The notes under the pieces: model-generated
What the model saw: only the letters and a program-made list of their open reading frames with translations
Databases searched by the model: none
Told to the model about the DNA's origin: nothing
Made by a program: the position numbers and the translations under genes
Shown: one piece after another, positions 3 to 42,917 of the stretch
How positions within the stretch are numbered: position 1 is the stretch's first letter
Layout: the number at the start of each line of letters is the position of its first letter
NCBI GenBank assembly: GCA_964187785.1
Contig: OZ076409.1
Coordinates: 75,890,001-75,954,000, forward strand
Length of the DNA: 64,000 nucleotides
Reading direction: 5' to 3'
Origin: Amphiscolops sp. MND2022
Taxonomy: Eukaryota

Positions 3-1412
3 CAATTGCGCCCTCCACAAGGATCATTGACATGGTTGTCACCGAAGATGCTGACAAATTTTGATTTCCACTACTTTAAACACTATGTTCGAGCAAAGCC
101 TGGATTGTTGCGACAGATACTGACTAAATTAGATGAACTTGATATCAGCCCAATCGAAGCATCAAATATTGCAAAGGAAATTGTAGCCAATTGTAATATC
201 CATTCAACTTGGGACAATGTTGGTGACAACTTTGACATGCGTGTTTTCAGCACACGAGCCGCTGAAAAACAGGCTGTTACACATCATTTTGAAAAAATTC
301 TGGCTGACCAAAGTTGTGTAAATGTTGTGTTAACTGCTAATGATGAAGTGAGTTCTACTGGTGCATCAATTTGGCGTCCGGCAGGTGACATTGAACAAAA
401 AATCATCGATTCCACATCCATCACTCCCCGACAACTGCTCTTGTATAAGAAAGCGCTTCTCAGATTTACAGCCAACCTCCCCAACATTCAGGCTAGGCAA
501 GGCCAATTGTGCCTAATTTTGGAAATACCAACCGAAACAGCATCTTCTCTGGACGTTTGGATTGCACCACCAGGTTGCCGGACCGTCACAAATTTCGACG
601 AAAATAACCTCATTACATCTGGTTGGCGCAAAGTCTCTATTTCAAAAGTGTTTACACCTATAATGACTAACAACAACAAATTCCTAAGGAGATACTCTTT
701 CCCTCTCAAGAACTATGTGGCATCCACTATTCACAAATGCATTGGTGACACGTTCCCAAAGATTGTTACCAAAGTTTCACTTACGGACAAACATTACAAA
801 ATTTGGGAAAAAGAGCAACTTCTTGTGTTGTTGAGTAGAGTCAGTAAGCTCGACGACATAACGTTCGTAGGTGAAGAACACGAAATAGAATTAACTTTAA
901 CTGCTGCCATTCAGCAAAAGTCCTGCTGGGGAACTTTCATCAATAACCTTCTGGAAAAATTGGCCTGTACTCCCTCTGACCTGACGCCGCCAACACTCAA
1001 CCTCCTTTCTTCAAATATTGTACCTTGGAACATTGTCTTACCCGAAGACAATGTAGGCTTTGTGTATCTTCTGGTAAGCACGAAGATTCCGAATGTTTAT
1101 TTCATTGGAGAGGCTCTGGAAATTCGGCGAGAATTGAAAGTTATCAACTCTGGAAATGGCGCATCCGAAACACGCCCAATCGAACGAAGGCCATGGGCAA
1201 TCTTAGCATTTGCAACAGGTTTCAACACCGAAGATTCTTCCAGCAACAATACGCAAAGAAAATCGCTTGTATCGAAGATGAGAACGCAATTTACTTCCCT
1301 TGGATTAAACTTCACCACCGTGGAATTGTTTGAAACGTTCAAAGAATCAACGAGAACATATGCTGACGAACGTGATCTAAATTTGAGAGTTATCCAGTGT
1401 GGCAGTGTTTAG
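3..1412 (+). CDS. 5'-truncated PIF1-family (SF1B) DNA helicase with C-terminal GIY-YIG-like domain; probable C-terminus of a Helitron-like Rep/helicase protein
   Basis: The frame is open from the window edge. Recognisable PIF1 motifs occur in order: QLRPP (motif III, GDxxQLxP-like), FDFHYFKHYVR (motif IV-like), RYSFPLKNYVASTIHKCIGDT (motif V, cf. RxQFPLxxxxAxTIHKxQGxT) and QLLVLLSRV (motif VI, cf. QxYVALSRV). From 1056: GFVYLLVS..NVYFIGE..RR..NSGNGASET..RRPWAILAFATGF, resembling SLX1-type GIY-YIG domains. Confidence 0.85.
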   Translation, partial: QLRPPQGSLTWLSPKMLTNFDFHYFKHYVRAKPGLLRQILTKLDELDISPIEASNIAKEIVANCNIHSTWDNVGDNFDMRVFSTRAAEKQAVTHHFEKILADQSCVNVVLTANDEVSSTGASIWRPAGDIEQKIIDSTSITPRQLLLYKKALLRFTANLPNIQARQGQLCLILEIPTETASSLDVWIAPPGCRTVTNFDENNLITSGWRKVSISKVFTPIMTNNNKFLRRYSFPLKNYVASTIHKCIGDTFPKIVTKVSLTDKHYKIWEKEQLLVLLSRVSKLDDITFVGEEHEIELTLTAAIQQKSCWGTFINNLLEKLACTPSDLTPPTLNLLSSNIVPWNIVLPEDNVGFVYLLVSTKIPNVYFIGEALEIRRELKVINSGNGASETRPIERRPWAILAFATGFNTEDSSSNNTQRKSLVSKMRTQFTSLGLNFTTVELFETFKESTRTYADERDLNLRVIQCGSV

Positions 1413-1972
1413 TTCATTTGGGTTTACAAATATTACACTGTAGAAGTCTCTGAGAATGGACGATAGATGAAGCATGTGAGGTTGCCCCGGCCACGCAGTG
1501 AGCCGAGGGCAAGCTTTATTCAAACTATAGATGAACATCCTTTTTTGTTGAAAAGTTCTTTGATTATACTTTGCCTTTGCTCATTTTTTCAACGTTCCTT
1601 TGTAAATATATACTGATAAAATTGTCACCCGTTGATAATATTACCAGTTGACACTGAAGTTGACACCAGTCAAGAAAAAAAATAATTATCTGACTGGAAC
1701 AAAAAAAGACAAAAAAAACAAGATGGCAAGATTGTTGAAACAGTTCAATTCTTCAACTTCGATAATCTTTTCCTTAACATATTTTTACCATCACGTGGAG
1801 GGAAATAGAAAAACATTTCTACAGTTAATTAGTTCGAAAGAGAAAAATTAGACAGTATTTAGACGCAGTAGTGATGTTGTACATCGAAAGAAATGAAAAT
1901 GTGTCGAGAAACATAACTTTATTGTGTTTTTAGATAGCTTTGTCTTCAATCGAGACTGAAACAAGATTCAAA

Positions 1973-2894
1973 ATGCCCATCATTAATAAAGATTTGTCGG
2001 CAGATGAGGCAGCCACCAGAACAATCAGTAAATTAACAACGTGTGAACTCGATGAAGTGATGGAATCTAATGCAACGGATCGGAAGTACATGATTTGTAC
2101 ATTGCTTTACGCCAAAAAATGTGTGAAATCAGTATCGTATTTTAAACTAACGAATGGACAAAAGCAAAAACAGGAGGCTACATTTAACCGTTTTGTCCTT
2201 CTGGGAGTGATCGGAAAAGAGAAAGTAATGGCAATATTTACCTACACCCAACTAGAAAGCGCGGAGTTGTTGCGTTACTGTTCTGCATTACAACCAGGAA
2301 ATGCGTGCGCCTTAATACGCCCTAAATTCGATAACAAGTATATGGGATCATCATCCACTACCCCAATCATACTAACTTCTGAGCCACTAGTGCCTCTGAA
2401 CATCAAGAATTACCCTGATGTCAGCTGTCCAAGAATTGTATCATCACCGGACTTTCAACATTTCTACATGAAAACGAAAGATTTGAAGCTCGATAATATA
2501 GATGCCATTGGAAACGTGTGCAATGGGACCTTCTGCGATGGTCAACCGAAGGGCGACTGTCCTTGTTTAGAGGTCGACAACCGGAAAAGCAGCTGGATCA
2601 TTACTGCGGATGTGAAATGCAGTGGGTTGTATCACTCATCAAAAATACGATCAAAACGATTGATAACGGTATTCGCTCCCAAATGTAAGTCGGCGGACCC
2701 TAACAAAAGAGAATTTGATGTCCTTGATTTGGGCGATTGTATTGAAAACTGTGTTGAAGCAGTAAATGCCAAGAATGGATGGGAAATTTTCGGTTGGGTG
2801 AAACCAAACGAATCTGCTCTAGAGTTTACAAACTATGAATGCGACCTACACATTATACATCTTCAACCTATCGAAATTACAGATGTAGAGTCAG
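1973..2894 (+). CDS. ORF2 exon 1: Cys-rich protein of unknown function (predicted spliced product 366 aa)
   Basis: Long open frame 1940-2950 with first ATG at 1973 and a CNGTFCDGQPKGDCPC cluster. After the candidate donor CAG|GTAAAC at 2894/2895 the frame runs into T-rich, intron-like sequence (IFIFPVFTFFFR). Confidence 0.7.
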
Positions 2895-3184
2895 GTAAAC
2901 CTAAACTTCAAATATTTATTTTTCCAGTTTTTACTTTCTTTTTTCGCTAAAGTTCTAAATAATTTTCGACCAAAATATGTCTAGCAGAATCAAAATATAC
3001 ATTTTAACAGAATCTCAAACACAACGTTTAGTGTTATTAACAATTGTTTTCGCAAAAGACATGAACATTAATTTCACCTTGAACTATTATTTTACAACTT
3101 GAGACTAAAACTTACAGTCTTTCTTTTTTTCCCAACGTTATTTTTAAGATGACCGATAATTGACAAATGATAAATATACTTCAG

Positions 3185-3363
3185 ATGCATACAAAGCCTT
3201 GCAGTATAAGTTGCCCGAAACATCTGCCCCAGAAGTCGAAATGCCCGTCATAGCAACTACATCAGGAACAGCTTCGGTTCCAGCAACAGCTCCAGCAACA
3301 GCTCCAGAAACAGCTCCAGCAACAGCTCCACCAGATGAACAAGCAGCTTCGGTTGAAAGATGA
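3185..3363 (+). CDS. ORF2 exon 2 (predicted): Ala/Pro/Thr-rich C-terminal tail
   Basis: The acceptor TTCAG| at 3184 joins in phase 1 (G|AT = Asp) with the 2894 donor, giving ...TDVES-D-AYKALQYKLPET...ASVER*. The intron 2895-3184 is a 290-bp AT-rich GT..AG segment. Confidence 0.6.
3280..3330 (+). repeat. 12-bp coding minisatellite (CCAGCAACAGCT x ~4; PATA/PETA)
   Basis: Directly visible tandem copies. Confidence 0.85.
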
Positions 3364-3594
3364 AAATCGCATTATCAACTACGAAAAATGCAGAAATCAA
3401 GAGAAGTGACAATGAGCAAAAAACATTGATAGATTTAAAAATCTCGAAACATTTTGATTCAATAATGTTATAATGTGATCATAAAAAGATTGCAGAAAAA
3501 ATAATCTTGAAACCGGTAAAAGATTATAAATATCGTATTGTTATGTTCCTTTAGTTCATATTCTTGAAATAATGTTAATTTCTTATTTTCAAGA

Positions 3595-3600: not shown

Positions 3601-3784
3601 AATTCACTTTTTCGTTCCCACAAGAAACTTGAATAGAGTGTTCATAGAAAAAATACGTATGTTCATAGACTAGTCAATATTTTCAATACAAATATCTGAA
3701 CTAGTCAAAATACTAATCTTTTCTTTGCTTTCACTCTGATATGACATTTGCTAAACGTTTGGTCCTTACAACATACACATGACT

Positions 3785-3896
3785 AACGTCAACGCCACAT
3801 ACTGTTACCAACGCCCACCGTCCGTAGGCATGCCGAGGCATGCCTTTCGACGACGTATGCCAAATACCATAAAACCGACGCGCACTCTCCCGCTAG
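3785..3896 (+). other. Conserved 3' terminus module (CAACGCC x2, hairpin, 45-50 nt spacer, CTAG); 47 copies in window
   Basis: AACGTCAACGCC..CAACGCCCACCGTCCGT-[A/G]GGCATGCC-GA-GGCATGCC[T/C]-TTCGACGAC..CTAG, present before every junction. Confidence 0.9.
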
Positions 3897-5164
3897 GTGG
3901 CCGTGTCTTTTCGACGTGCTTTTGCATCGAGGAGTGGGTAGGGCCCCGCGACGACCTAGAAGAATTGGATGCTCACCGAAACGTGCAGAATTCTACGAGA
4001 TCTCATAGTTTGAGCCATACGATTTTGCTGAAATTTGGCATGTGGCCTGGAATTGGTGAGTAGGTAAAACGTGTAGGAGGTGATTTTTCCCAAATTCCAC
4101 TCTGAGACGAGATATGGGCAAATAACGGTCCCAAAAATGGCAAAATTGCACTTTTTTCAACTTTGTCAGCCCATATCTCGTTCCCAGGTGCCCGGAGCGG
4201 GACGCGTTAAGCTGATTATAAACTCTAGGGTGTTGAGGCGGTACGGTGAACTTTGGCCCGTTCCGATCGGACTTGTAGTCTTGGAGAAATAACGGTATTT
4301 TTGGGAAATTTTTTCTAACGGTCCAGCTTATCTTTGCCATTTTTCGAAAATGTACTCGCCTAAAGGCCTCCCCCTGGCCGAATTTACTCCCAGCAAAACC
4401 ATTTGGCCCTAAATACGGAGTTTCAGCGTTCCAGCATTCCCGGGCGAAAAGTTGTGGGACTTGGAAAAATTTCAAAAATTTTCAAATTTTTTTTTTACGT
4501 TTTCCGGGCCCCCAATGAAGGGAAACGACCCCCCAACCCTTATTTTGAGTGAATGCATGTGGAAAGGCCATGGTTAGAGGAGAAAAATGCCGTTTAGATT
4601 GTCTTTCTATTTTAACTTGACATTGACTTATGACGTTTTGAATGTGATGTTAGGATGTGTGAGGCATGTGAAAAGTTGATGTTTTGAGTCTTTATCTCAT
4701 ATGAAAGCAATTGAGATGCACGCTGTCCTGCTCAAAACGTCTTTCGTTGTAGTTTTCCAGTGCACCAGAACCCTTTGGTGTCATTTGAACATACTTTTCT
4801 TCGGTTTATTAACATTTTTAATGTATTTATTCCAATTTTTATTATCTTATAGCTCAAAACAGTTGAGTACATTTCATCTCCCTTTCGGGGGAGATGAGAA
4901 TGTACTCGCTAAAGACCTAGCGCCATGACCAAAATTTGAAGCGCACGTTTTGTATCTTCTTACAGACTTGTTTTTGTATTTTTTCGGATTTTTCTAAAAA
5001 ATAATAATATACTTGAAATACATTACTTGACTTTACTACTACATTCCACCTCCAACGTCAACGCCCCCCTGCTTGCATCAACGCCCACCGTCCGTGGGCA
5101 TGCCGAGGCATGCCCTTCGACGACGTATGCCAAATGCCCAGTGCCACGCAGTCATTCTCGCTAG
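3897..5164 (+). mobile_element. Non-autonomous unit, subfamily A (starts GTGGCCGTGTCTTTTCG; 23 copies including variants and the final partial copy)
   Basis: 1268 bp, bounded by CTAG|GTG junctions, with the terminal hairpin at 5096-5115. Confidence 0.75.
4865..4907 (+). other. Conserved internal stem-loop (GAGTACATT-TCATCTCCC..GGGAGATGA-G-AATGTACTC), one per ~1.28-kb unit
   Basis: About 18-bp stem with a variable loop, retained in subfamilies A-G. Confidence 0.85.
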
Positions 5165-14500: not shown

Positions 14501-16708
14501 CAAACTGTCTCAGGAATGCTGTGTGAAAATTTCAGCTCAATCGGACTTAAACTCGAGGAGATATAGCGTTTTTCCGGAGCGGGGGGGTTTCATTTTTCTA
14601 ACGGTCCAGCTTATCTTTGCCATTTTTTCGAAAATGCACTCGCCTAAAGGCCTCCCCTGGCCGGTTTTATTCCCAGCAAAACCATTTGGCCCTAAATACG
14701 GAGTTTCAGCGTTCCAGCATTCTCGGGCGAAAAGTTGTGGGACTTAAGTGTTGTGGGCCCCCAAGTTGTGGGACGTAGTGGGGGAAAAGACCCCCCAACC
14801 AGTAAATCAAGTGAATGCATGTGGAAAGGCCATGTTTAGAGGAGAAAAATGCCGTTTAGAACGTCTTTTTATCTTGGCTCAACGTTGACTTATGACGTTT
14901 TGAAGGTGATGTTTGGAGGTGTAAAGCAAGTGAATAGTAAACGTTATGAGTATTTATCTGATCTGAAAGCCATTGAGATGCAATATGATTGCTCAAAACG
15001 TAATTCATTGCAGTTTGGCAATCAATCAACACCCTTTGTTGTCGTTTGACATACTTTTTTGTTGTTAAAATAAAAAATTTTGTGTATTTATTCATTTTTT
15101 TCTCATCAAATAACTTGGAACAGTTGAGTACATTCCATCCCCCCTTCCGGGGGAGATGAGAATGTACTCGCAAAAAGCACCGAACTACGGCCCTTACCTT
15201 CCCGAGCTACGCAGTATAAGGATTACATATTGGTTCCGACATTTTCATAGAGTTATATCCTGGTAATCTGTCTGGATATGCCGAAAAATCAGCACGTGCC
15301 TTTTAATACCAAGTTGCTCACAACGACAATTATTTTATATCAACGCCCCCATATTTATCAACGCCCCCCGTCCGTGGGCATGCCGAGGCATGCCCTTCGA
15401 CGACCCGCACCAAAATATGCGTTAGCGCGGTAGCCGCTAGGTGGCCGTGTCTTTTCGACGTGCTTTTGCATTGAGGAGTGGGTAGGGCCCCGCGACGACC
15501 TAGAAGAATTGGATGCTCACCGAAACGTGCAGAATTCTACGAGATCTCATAGTTTGAGCCATACGATTTTGCTGAAATTTGGCATGTGGCCTGGAATTGG
15601 TGAGTAGGTAAAACGTGTAGGAGGTGATTTTTCCCAAATTCCACTGTGAGACGAGATATGGGCAAATAACGGTCCCAAAAATGGCAAAAATGCACTTTTT
15701 TCAACTTTGTCAGCCCATATCTCGTTCCCAGGTGCCCGGAGCGGGACGCGTTAAGCTGATTATAAACTCTAGGGTGTTGAGGCTGTACGGTGAACTTGGG
15801 CCCGTTCCGATCCGACTTGTAGTCTTGGAGAAATAACGGTATTTTTGGGGAACCTTTTCTAACGGTCCAGCTTATCTTTGCCATTTTTTCGAAAATGTAC
15901 TCGCCTAAAGGCCTCCCCCTGGCCGAATTTACTCCCAGCAAAACCATTTGGCCCTAAATACGGAGTTTCAGCGTTCCAGCATTCCCGGGCGAAAAGTTGT
16001 GGGACTTGGAAAATTTTCAAAAATTTTCAAAAAATTTTTTTTCGTTTTCCGGGCCCCCAATGAAGGGGAAACGACCCCCCAACCAGTATTTTGAGTGAAT
16101 TCATGTGGAAAGCCCTTGTTTTGACGAGAAAAATACCGTTTAGAACATCTTTTTATCTTGACTCAACGTTGACTTATGACGTTTTGAATGTGATGTAAGG
16201 ATGTAGGAGGCATGTGATAAGTTGATGTTTTGAGTCTTTATCTCATATGAAAGCGGTTGAGATGCAAGCTGTCCTGCTCAAAACGTCTTTCGTTGTAATT
16301 TTCCAGTGCACCAATACCCTTTGGTGTCATATAAACATACTTTTTGTCGATATATTAACAATTTTAATGTATTTATTCCAATTTTTATTATCTTATAACT
16401 CAAAACAGTTGAGTACATTTCATCTCCCTTTCGGGGGAGATGAGAATGTACTCGCTAAAGACCTAGCGCCATGACCAAAAGTTTGAAACCCACGTTTTTT
16501 ATCTTCTTATAGACTTGTTTTTGTATTTTTTCGGAATTTTTTAAAAATTAATATACTTGAAATACATTACTTGACTTTACTACTACAACCCACCTCCAAC
16601 GACAACGCCCCCATGCTTGCATCAACGCCCACCGTCCGTGGGCATGCCGAGGCATGCCCTTCGACGACGTATGCCAAATGCCCAGTGCCACGCAGTCATT
16701 ATCGCTAG

Positions 16709-40946: not shown

Positions 40947-42917
40947 GTGCGGGGGGGTAACCCCAACAAATATATTGGAGGATTCGGGTAGGGTCCTGAA
41001 TCCGATTTTAACTCTAATAGCTATCGATAGGAAATCGTGCAAAAATTTCGGGATCTCGTGATCTAACCATAGGATTTTAAAGTTGGAGCGGCCCCCACCA
41101 GATTTTCCAAAGTTATTCGCCCCCCACCGGGTTCCAGCGTGATTGAAATATTTTGACGGGGTACACGGGCGACCGTTAGGGGTCATTTTGGGGGTAAAAT
41201 TTATATCCGGTCGCATAACTTTTTTCCTGTTGGTTTAAAACTTTGGGACCCTGCTAAAAGTTTCTTGACCGTGTTGCAGTGGCTCCGGAGGTCCAAACCA
41301 AATTTTTCTATCTTGAAGCTATCTCCAAGTACCCCCCCGCCCAAACCGTTATTTTTCCGGAAACGCAGGTTTTTGACCCGGAAGGAGTCGTCTGAGCGCG
41401 GGTTCGTTAGGTGATGTATTGGGGACGGCCTTGAGACGAAGCGGGGGACATGTAGTTTGCCGACCCCAATTTACCCCCCGGACGGGAAATGACCGTTATA
41501 TGAGCGGGAAAATTGCCCCCCTCCACGTTTAACCGCTATTTCCGGTGTGAAGGAGTGGGAGTAGCGCGTCGGGTGTCATATATCAAAAGTAGGTTTAGAC
41601 AAGGACCTATCGGAAACATGTGGTTTGGGACCCCCTGGACCAACCCGTTAGCGAGAAATGGCGCTTCCGCCTCCTTTTTTTACTGCTAAAACCGTAAAAT
41701 GGGCATTGAGGGGTAAATATCTCGTGAACGCGTGGAGCAATCGTGTCCTTCACTACTACAAGGTTTCATGCCCATCATATGGTGCCTTCAGGGGGGCAAA
41801 CAGATTTCCGCTATCTATCACCGTTACCGACTTGGCCCCCCAGCCTAACCGCTATGTTACCGGAAATGTCACTTTTTGAGCCCAAAGGGTCAGTCCGAGC
41901 GCGGCATCGTTAGGTAACTTATTGTAGTACTCAATGAGACGAGTTGGGGGATATAGTTTCAGTCACCCCCCGTTACCCCTTGTGACCGGAAATGACCGTT
42001 ATGTTGGTAAAATTGCGATTTTTGTACTTTTTGAAGGGCAATTAGGTGCGGAAGGAGTGGTAATAGGTGCTTGGACACTATATGAGGTAAGGGAGGACGT
42101 GAGGCGAGCATTCGGAAATAACCGTTATGTTGACCCCAAAGTCCCCCTGGTACCGTAAACGACCGGAAATGGTCAAATTTTGTGTCTATTGAGTACAAAT
42201 GTTTGGTGTTTTATGAATAAAGTACCTATTAGGTGTTTCGACGGTCTGCAGTAGTGAACATAGTCATGAAACCTTACGGGGGGTAACGGTATATAGCACC
42301 GGAAGTCCAAACCGTTGGAGACAGGATAGGTTTTTTTGGTTTTAAAATGTCTTTCGGCGTACTTTTGTTGACTATTATGGACTATTTTTAAAAATTAAAG
42401 TTTTTCCATATAGTTTCAGAGACTCCGAAACCTCAACCAACATAACCGTTACCTTATGATAGCCTTTCAAGTTGGCCTGGTGTCAACTTGGAGGGGCTAT
42501 CCTTCAAAAATCGTTAATCAAGTGTGTTTTTGGGTATGTTTGTATCAATTTAGAATCAATTAGAGCTTCAAGAAAAGTTTGCCAACGACAAAAACTATGT
42601 CGTGATGATTCCGTTATTAGAATGATGGTTAACAAAATGTTGATAAAGTTAATTTTTTACATTTCAAATGTGTCCTAAAAGCCAGAAAACCTCTTTACCA
42701 AAAAAATGGTATTGATTGAATTGTATATAACAGGTAATAAAAGTTCAAATTGATTATTACGTTTCATTATTCAAGCTAAAACTTCATAACAAAGTTTAAT
42801 TAACGTCAACGCCACACACTTTACATCAACGCCCACCGTCTGTGGGCATGCCGAGGCATGCCCTTCGACGACGTTTACCAAATACATACCTAACGACGCC
42901 CGTACATCCCGGGCTAG
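40947..42917 (+). mobile_element. Unique 1971-bp non-autonomous unit (H) with family termini but an unrelated interior
   Basis: Starts GTGCGG after CTAG, has GGGTAGGGTCC at 40986, and ends with CAACGCC x2, the hairpin at 42844-42863 and CTAG at 42914-42917. Confidence 0.8.

Follow-up and report, generated by a model that had tools for sequence, protein, structure and literature searches.

The transposase gene, its companion ORF and the flanking array

The stretch of DNA analyzed here (the window, 64,000 nt) opens inside a transposase gene. The reading frame at 3-1412 on the plus strand is open at the 5' edge of the window and encodes 469 aa, the C-terminal portion of a Helitron-like RepHel transposase. 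It comprises the C-terminal half of a PIF1-family helicase (3..902), with the start of the ORF upstream of the window, a linker (903..1055), and a catalytically degenerate GIY-YIG domain of SLX1/HIGLE type (1056..1412; 118 aa plus stop, residues 352-469). The 469 aa are 100% identical to residues 1859-2327 of P0180 and P0187 (2,327 aa each), either of which may be the window locus itself. The single ORF and this identity bear out the proposal of a sequence-only reading that the domain is fused in frame behind the helicase. Both PF14214 and PF05970 are present in P0180 and P0187, and a family profile (64 aligned sequences, three short ones apparently without the GIY-YIG domain) matches Pif1 structures at E 5e-15 and Helraiser weakly, at E 1e-6. 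In the part of P0180 that lies 5' of the window, an HUH motif is found at 1103, a Y..KY motif at 1278, Walker A at 1733, and Walker B at 1818; an HUH motif and two tyrosines thus precede the PIF1 helicase within one ORF, the arrangement that defines a RepHel protein. The transposase cluster to which the window belongs has 13 members, 11 of which are ORFs of 2,321-2,338 aa with HUH, two-Tyr, Walker A, and Walker B motifs. Most of 24 longer relatives are annotated as Helitron_like_N and/or PIF1, and 12 of the 24 also as GIY-YIG. We note a Cys/His cluster near the N-terminus of the window's family (P0180 residues 67-98) and an N-terminal OTU-like domain in some relatives (P0223, P0030).

A second gene, ORF2, follows on the same strand. 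Its first exon (1973..2894) was assigned from a structure model and Foldseek to a tandem OB-fold, RPA70-like protein. A GT-AG intron (2895..3184) is predicted from the sequence, and its removal yields an open product of 366 aa; matches to distant homologues stop near the intron start. The second exon (3185..3363), likewise predicted, would supply an Ala/Pro/Thr-rich tail with a 12-nt repeat. The best Foldseek matches of the ORF2 model (pLDDT 74) are to RPA70 (E 8e-6 and 4e-5), followed by CST and LEF-3 (to 2e-4), and OB folds generally are matched at Z 7-9 with an identity of about 10%, so that ORF2 is predicted to be an RPA70-like single-stranded-DNA-binding protein with tandem OB folds. At a second locus, L001, an ORF2 homologue (27% identity, E 1e-27) also follows a transposase, in this case a distant relative of the window's with an intact GIY-YIG site. 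The ORF2 cluster has 10 members, and the inferred locations apparently place 8 of them alongside members of the transposase cluster. A GC-rich hairpin (1479..1516, plus strand; -14.9 kcal/mol as a raw DNA fold) lies ∼67 nt past the transposase stop. In L001 a GC-rich hairpin (∼3350-3383, -15.6 kcal/mol) is also found between the transposase gene and ORF2, at a different distance from the transposase stop.

The 3' terminus of the coding element is inferred at 3784..3896 on the plus strand, where a conserved block with a hairpin core (3827-3844; fold -14.3 kcal/mol) ends in CTAG; the 5' end of the element falls outside the window. From 3897 to 64000, on the same strand, the window is a head-to-tail array of 46 complete units and a final one truncated at the window edge. 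Of the complete units, 45 measure 1,267-1,292 nt and fall into several subtypes (about 60-99% identical); the remaining one, of 1,971 nt (40947..42917), is an odd unit that sits exactly between two CTAG|GTG junctions. CTAG|GTG is present at 47/47 junctions, and the 7-mer is absent from the rest of the window on both strands; the cut is placed putatively between the CTAG and the GTG. The conserved block closes every unit, its hairpin lying 44-55 nt from CTAG. Over 82-86 nt, the end of the coding element, the ordinary units, and the 1,971-nt unit are ∼89% identical. The link to a flanking array that had been suspected from the sequence is therefore upheld, in that the element's 3' end is common to the units and the junctions are exact. 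A cluster of 13 transposases and a 3' block shared with the array correspond to the multiple copies and the non-autonomous partners with common ends that are expected of a RepHel element, and the array units are probably, judging from their sequences, non-autonomous partners of the coding element.

We read the array as such partners inserted head-to-tail at one junction; the alternative is unequal exchange at a short conserved block. Linkage between subtypes reaches its minimum at the CTAG|GTG junction (r 0.32), dips to 0.42-0.43 at two places with one nearly invariant flank, and is 0.59-0.98 elsewhere. The 1,971-nt unit has essentially the termini alone in common with the other units, its interior being unrelated, which favors insertion over unequal exchange. 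The shuffling of diverged subtypes and an unrelated unit at one 7-nt junction suggests, moreover, repeated targeted insertion rather than a single concatemer. On balance we lean slightly toward junction-targeted insertion. The junction motif recurs in L001, ∼910 nt past its ORF2, a single case. With an HMM built from the window's junctions alone, the L001 site is the best match, though only at E 0.34; with a two-block matrix it scores 29.4 bits, whereas 100 shuffles reached 16.1 at most, but the blocks had been picked after L001 was known.

Several other features of the array were recorded. Units of different subtypes, which are about 60-70% identical to one another, alternate in shuffled order across a single exact junction, and there are runs of near-identical type-A units. 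The odd unit shares with the others a G-rich motif ∼35 nt from its start and contains internal repeated segments. A strongly conserved internal hairpin (4864-4909, with equivalents in the 1.27-1.29 kb units; -17.1 kcal/mol) has one of its arms repeated in direct orientation near 4354, and a block of ∼100 nt (about 4365-4480 and equivalents) is 90-97% identical across subtypes that are 60-70% identical in its flanks; the block is a possible candidate for a binding site or a second exchange point. A minus-strand ORF of 135-136 codons (15537-15947 and ∼15 equivalents) recurs in one unit subtype and is probably a by-product of the repetition. The junction at 3890-3902 resembles the CTCF-binding consensus. 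An HLE2-style terminus at the internal inverted repeat near 4864-4909 was considered and dropped because no linkage break occurs there and neither the end of the coding element nor the odd unit contains the repeat.

The termini fit neither HLE1 nor HLE2. For HLE1, the 3' hairpin and a CTRR end are present (CTAG, 47/47), and the 5' TC start and the A|T target are lacking in the array units. For HLE2/Helentrons, asymmetric terminal inverted repeats were not found: the longest inverted match between the first 30 and the last 90 nt is 4-6 nt across the 46 units. In the Helraiser system (PMC4778049, in part), Rep makes the nick, the helicase unwinds the DNA, termination takes place at a hairpin and CTAG, and the resulting circles contain head-to-tail junctions. 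The element in the window resembles Helitron1/Helraiser in its HUH motif and two tyrosines, PIF1 helicase, 3' hairpin, CTAG end, and head-to-tail junctions (PMC4778049). The hairpin of Helitron1/Helraiser, however, lies 11 nt from the end, compared with 44-55 nt for the hairpin core here (PMC4778049), and those elements start with TC, whereas the array units start with GTG after CTAG (47/47). The sections of PMC4778049 available to us describe no C-terminal nuclease fold of Helraiser. Helitron-derived tandem arrays in Xenopus (PMC12001565) and Meloidogyne (PMC13404089) are reported to have autonomous elements beside arrays of non-autonomous units. The window is alike in that an autonomous element adjoins probable non-autonomous units, and differs from what those reports present in shuffling 60-70%-identical subtypes and an unrelated unit at one exact junction.

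Fold and active site of the C-terminal domain

Taken alone, the 118-aa stretch gives weak matches to Pfam GIY-YIG (E 0.016, 15.9 bits against a cut-off of 22.6) and to a UPF0213 protein (E 0.034); catalytically intact relatives exceed the Pfam GIY-YIG cut-off, whereas the window's own domain lies below it. A Pfam ArgoMid match (E 0.04) was treated as minor. With the family profile, SLX1 chains from three fungi are matched along with At-HIGLE, the E values running from 2e-14 to 3e-11. An AlphaFold model of the domain (pLDDT 96.4) gives the same picture. Foldseek ranks 1-11 are all SLX1/HIGLE (best E 1e-4), and the top three of 48,161 chains in VIA-align are SLX1/HIGLE as well, with Z 11.0/10.8/10.2, rmsd 2.4-2.5 Å, and 100-107 residues aligned. 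The next chain follows at Z 7.0, and mitoribosomal chains (Z 6.6-7.0) were treated as minor relative to SLX1/HIGLE (Z 10.2-11.0). By profile and model alike, the domain has an SLX1-type GIY-YIG fold. The SLX1-type pattern first noticed by eye is thus recovered by profile (E 2e-14) and by structure (Z 10.2-11.0 against SLX1/HIGLE), the two kinds of search that had been proposed to check it, and a lack of any fold match, which would have spoken against it, was not the outcome.

The domain shares with SLX1 and At-HIGLE the fold over 100-107 residues and the spacing of the motifs, and its intact relatives keep the five catalytic residues. It differs from them in being fused to a transposase, in having lost four catalytic residues, and in lacking the C-terminal zinc-finger/SLX4-binding part of SLX1, which is absent from this ORF: the stop codon, at nt 1412, directly closes the Uri-like domain, and the protein ends 46 residues past the Glu position.

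In yeast SLX1, Tyr17, Tyr29, Arg39, His43, and Glu82 are each reported as essential (PMC8287910, seen in part). Catalytic positions were mapped by alignment to the yeast SLX1 chain and to relatives. One of the five residues is left in the window: Tyr355 is kept, and the other sites, all on the plus strand, are occupied by Phe367 (YIG-motif Tyr, 1101-1103), Glu377 (Arg, 1131-1133), Ile381 (His, 1143-1145), and Val423 (metal-binding Glu, 1269-1271). The sequence-only reading had suspected degeneracy from the loss of the His and the metal-binding Glu, and both losses stand; the damage is wider than it supposed, with four sites lost and not two. Its placement of the YIG tyrosine within YFIG was off register, the Tyr lying one residue before the site, and the two residues of RR, which it had taken to include the catalytic Arg, precede the Arg site by one and two positions. 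Given these replacements, the window's domain is very probably inactive as a nuclease.

A rewired active site, in which Glu377 would replace the lost metal ligand and preserve an atypical activity, seems to us very improbable. Glu does occur at the Arg site in 10/156 relatives, on several branches and often together with loss of the canonical Glu, as such rewiring might predict; but the canonical Glu is still present in several Glu-bearing relatives, the second Tyr and the His are gone too, and each single loss cripples SLX1. More broadly, the catalytic Arg is changed to Glu or Asp in 14/156 relatives on several separate branches, and the His is often changed to Ile or Leu, which gives the appearance of convergence at the sequence level.

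The dead site is not peculiar to one copy. All 12 domain-bearing members of the window's family share it, 11 of them in full-length ORFs. A dead site in 12/12 members with otherwise intact transposase motifs marks a family trait of a multi-copy transposase and not a damaged copy, and since the dead site is family-wide in full-length ORFs, cutting looks dispensable and the fold does not.

Breadth of the fusion and repeated loss of the catalytic residues

A search of 50% representatives returned 766 proteins at an E cut-off of 0.001, of which 145 reached 1e-30 or better. The best 150 of the 766 and the 24 longer relatives were analyzed, 171 distinct proteins together. This collection is the survey of PIF1+GIY-YIG homologues that the sequence-only reading had called for. 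In 156 relatives that could be compared over the first half of the domain, the five residues are kept in 145 (Tyr), 125 (Tyr), 119 (Arg), 128 (His), and 127 (Glu). After exclusion of 20 of the 171 as fragments or as lacking the region, all five are kept in 111/151 relatives and two or fewer in 27/151. The nearest Atlas cluster (114 members, 98% with GIY-YIG) is eukaryotic, with diatoms commonest among the 5 recorded, and one relative is labeled Styela clava. A metagenome scan gave 1 confirmed locus from 29 pattern matches. The phage records and viral contigs that were searched gave no match, and there is no sign of a viral origin in them. At the sequence level, the fusion of GIY-YIG and PIF1 defines a broad clade of Helitron-like transposases.

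That a GIY-YIG domain would be unusual in a Helitron-like element, as first supposed, holds in part: it has been reported once, for HelenSM92, yet the fusion is common in sequence collections. The single prior report and this abundance indicate that the fusion is under-described, not unique. HelenSM92, an HLE2 family of Sphagnum magellanicum, is reported to carry a GIY-YIG domain besides RepHel (PMC11417382, HELIANO), and the supplement mentions GIY in the legend of Fig. S8. HelenSM92 is presented there as a capture by a single family, one with short terminal inverted repeats and with TT sites (PMC11417382); the units of the window have a hairpin and CTAG joined to GTG. The passages of PMC11417382 on HelenSM92 do not say whether the domain is fused in frame, of SLX1 type, or catalytically intact, nor how widespread it is. 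Among the literature on Helitron-like elements and GIY-YIG that could be covered in part (subscription journals and Repbase were outside its scope), HelenSM92 alone was found, and no inactive domain; on Helitron and SLX1, the matches listed had unrelated titles. The available text on a third clade of Helitron-like elements in Paramecium (PMC13085455) mentions no GIY-YIG domain. The background sources on termini and arrays (PMC3627910, PMC12910113, PMC5148889, PMC13404089, PMC12001565, and bioRxiv 10.64898/2026.09.17.752431) contain, in the parts available, no link between GIY-YIG and Helitrons.

The closest parallel is provided by the Helentrons, in which RepHel carries a C-terminal AP endonuclease and a separate ORF encodes RPA (PMC4067079, PMC6431247, both in part). 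Like them, the element described here has an endonuclease-fold domain in frame behind PIF1, an RPA-like second ORF, and non-autonomous partners (PMC4067079). Unlike what is described for Helentrons, GIY-YIG takes the place of the AP endonuclease, the unit ends have no subterminal inverted repeats, and the domain has been inactivated repeatedly. Neither an AP endonuclease nor DUF6570 is listed for the 16 long relatives scanned at E 0.05.

Loss of the catalytic residues has occurred repeatedly. On a helicase-only FastTree tree (157/172 rows, 15 having been dropped for coverage <70%), 140 tips could be scored, and the distribution of the dead state over them requires at least nine changes. Two deep clades consist of dead members throughout (support 0.965 and 0.975). 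In an IQ-TREE analysis of Rep plus helicase (16 rows), the intact family P0006 is nested in the window's clade (100/100). One origin of the dead domains is rejected for seven dead rows (p-AU 6e-8) and is not rejected for five close dead rows (p-AU 0.056); the groups in this test were named after the helicase tree was already known. We note that at least seven related families, apparently in one assembly, span fully intact to fully dead GIY-YIG sites. Members of three transposase clusters and one ORF2 cluster are apparently co-located, which suggests mixed arrays of several autonomous families.

Such coexistence would allow complementation in trans, with dead families using the nuclease of an intact sister in the same genome and their own domain on its way out. 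The intact P0006 cluster (3 members) indeed appears to belong to the assembly of the dead families. The dead families are nevertheless the more numerous there, with 13, 9, and 7 members against 3, and the two deep, entirely dead clades and the conserved scaffold also argue against a domain kept going by its neighbors, so that we regard this explanation as improbable.

Conservation was compared at the protein level. Identity of the non-catalytic core among four close dead families is 0.61, against 0.63 for the median 74-residue window of the whole protein; in the same families it is 0.70 for the helicase, 0.48 for the linker, and 0.36 for the tail. Within the window's own family, 13/79 sites vary in the core, 56/458 in the helicase, and 262/771 in the N-terminal region. 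Across 28 dead domains, the retention of single scaffold residues is 100% for Asn382, 96% for Pro397, 93% for Ser359, and 89% for Phe407. These protein comparisons make continued selection on the fold of the dead domain probable. Neutral decay after loss of function could account for four catalytic losses and for the truncation of a few family members (P0202, P0203) just before the GIY-YIG domain. We consider it quite unlikely all the same, as the changes cluster at catalytic positions, the core is as conserved as the rest of the protein, and its variable sites (13/79) are to be set against those of the N-terminal region (262/771).

Possible roles of the degenerate domain

A role in binding branched or hairpin DNA is plausible from the sequence comparisons, and Slx1 itself is reported to bind DNA non-catalytically via separate sites (PMC6902002, in part). 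The window's core has 11 Lys/Arg and a net charge of +5. The window's family and its close dead sisters range from +3 to +7, as basic as intact domains or more, and Arg376 and Lys379 align, in a profile alignment, with the site-I arginines of Candida Slx1. Several observations speak against a clamp on DNA. The median net charge is +1 in dead domains and +4 in intact ones (p 5e-5, uncorrected for kinship), so that loss of the site goes with a less basic domain on average, and a Glu in place of the Arg would tend to push phosphate away. In place of the two site-II histidines of Slx1 the window has Ser424 and Thr428; these histidines are not conserved among intact relatives either. Between distant lineages at equal helicase distance, core identity is lower for dead pairs (0.25-0.31) than for intact pairs (0.33-0.41). 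Weighing these, we put forward DNA binding as the retained job of the window's domain only tentatively, as something a little short of an even call.

The chief competing explanation is a structural vestige or protein-contact module that packs on the helicase and stabilizes the protein, or contacts ORF2 or a host factor, with no contact to DNA. Residues conserved in the dead lineages are mostly buried scaffold, the pocket has repeatedly become hydrophobic (Ile, Leu, or Ala at the His site), and the fall in net charge fits as well. The basic character retained by the window's family and its close dead sisters (+3 to +7) is not what such a module calls for, and some relatives seem to end at the helicase, which can apparently exist without the domain; we judge this explanation possible but rather unlikely. 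The proteins in question are P0087, P0089, and P0099, which end directly after the helicase; P0011 and P0012 both end at one common residue within the GIY-YIG domain. Introns could be the cause of both patterns, as far as the sequences tell. Unless they are intron artifacts, the three or four relatives that end right after the helicase imply that the domain may be wholly dispensable.

The explanation we prefer, still provisionally and with confidence somewhat below even, is that of a non-cutting, branched-DNA-binding module on an otherwise intact Helitron-like transposase. In the ancestor of the clade, the domain would have been an active, branch-specific endonuclease, which probably trimmed flaps or resolved the branched intermediates that arise when Rep transfers a strand of the circle into the target. 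In the window's family the chemistry would have been lost and the fold and basic surface kept, the dead domain most likely serving as a non-cutting clamp on branched or hairpin DNA beside the helicase. Rep would nick and join, and other nucleases would clean up. The element would travel with its RPA-like protein and insert head-to-tail at CTAG|GTG, making mixed arrays with non-autonomous units. Since L001 shows this junction motif together with an intact site, loss of catalysis is not a precondition for use of the junction. A bolder proposal, which we think doubtful, is that of a distinct and widespread rolling-circle branch, parallel to Helentrons, that acquired an SLX1-type junction endonuclease and inserts site-specifically at its own head-to-tail CTAG|GTG junctions, so producing mixed arrays of tens of kb. 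Under this proposal the nuclease would have been converted many times into a reader of junctions that no longer cuts and instead directs or safeguards insertion.

We regard as real a pseudo-nuclease that is conserved within a little-described branch of Helitron-like elements and is associated with an array of unusual order. Besides the AP endonuclease of Helentrons, a second, unrelated endonuclease fold is thereby found fused behind the helicase, which bears on the resolution of Helitron insertion intermediates and on the role of the Helentron endonuclease. The clade contains natural pairs at about 60-65% identity, apparently from a single genome, of which one partner retains the catalytic residues and the other lacks them; these make the role of the extra nuclease directly testable. 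If junction targeting is true, it would offer a route by which a transposase can build and reshuffle long, complex satellite arrays, and the transposase would be a candidate site-preferring integrase.
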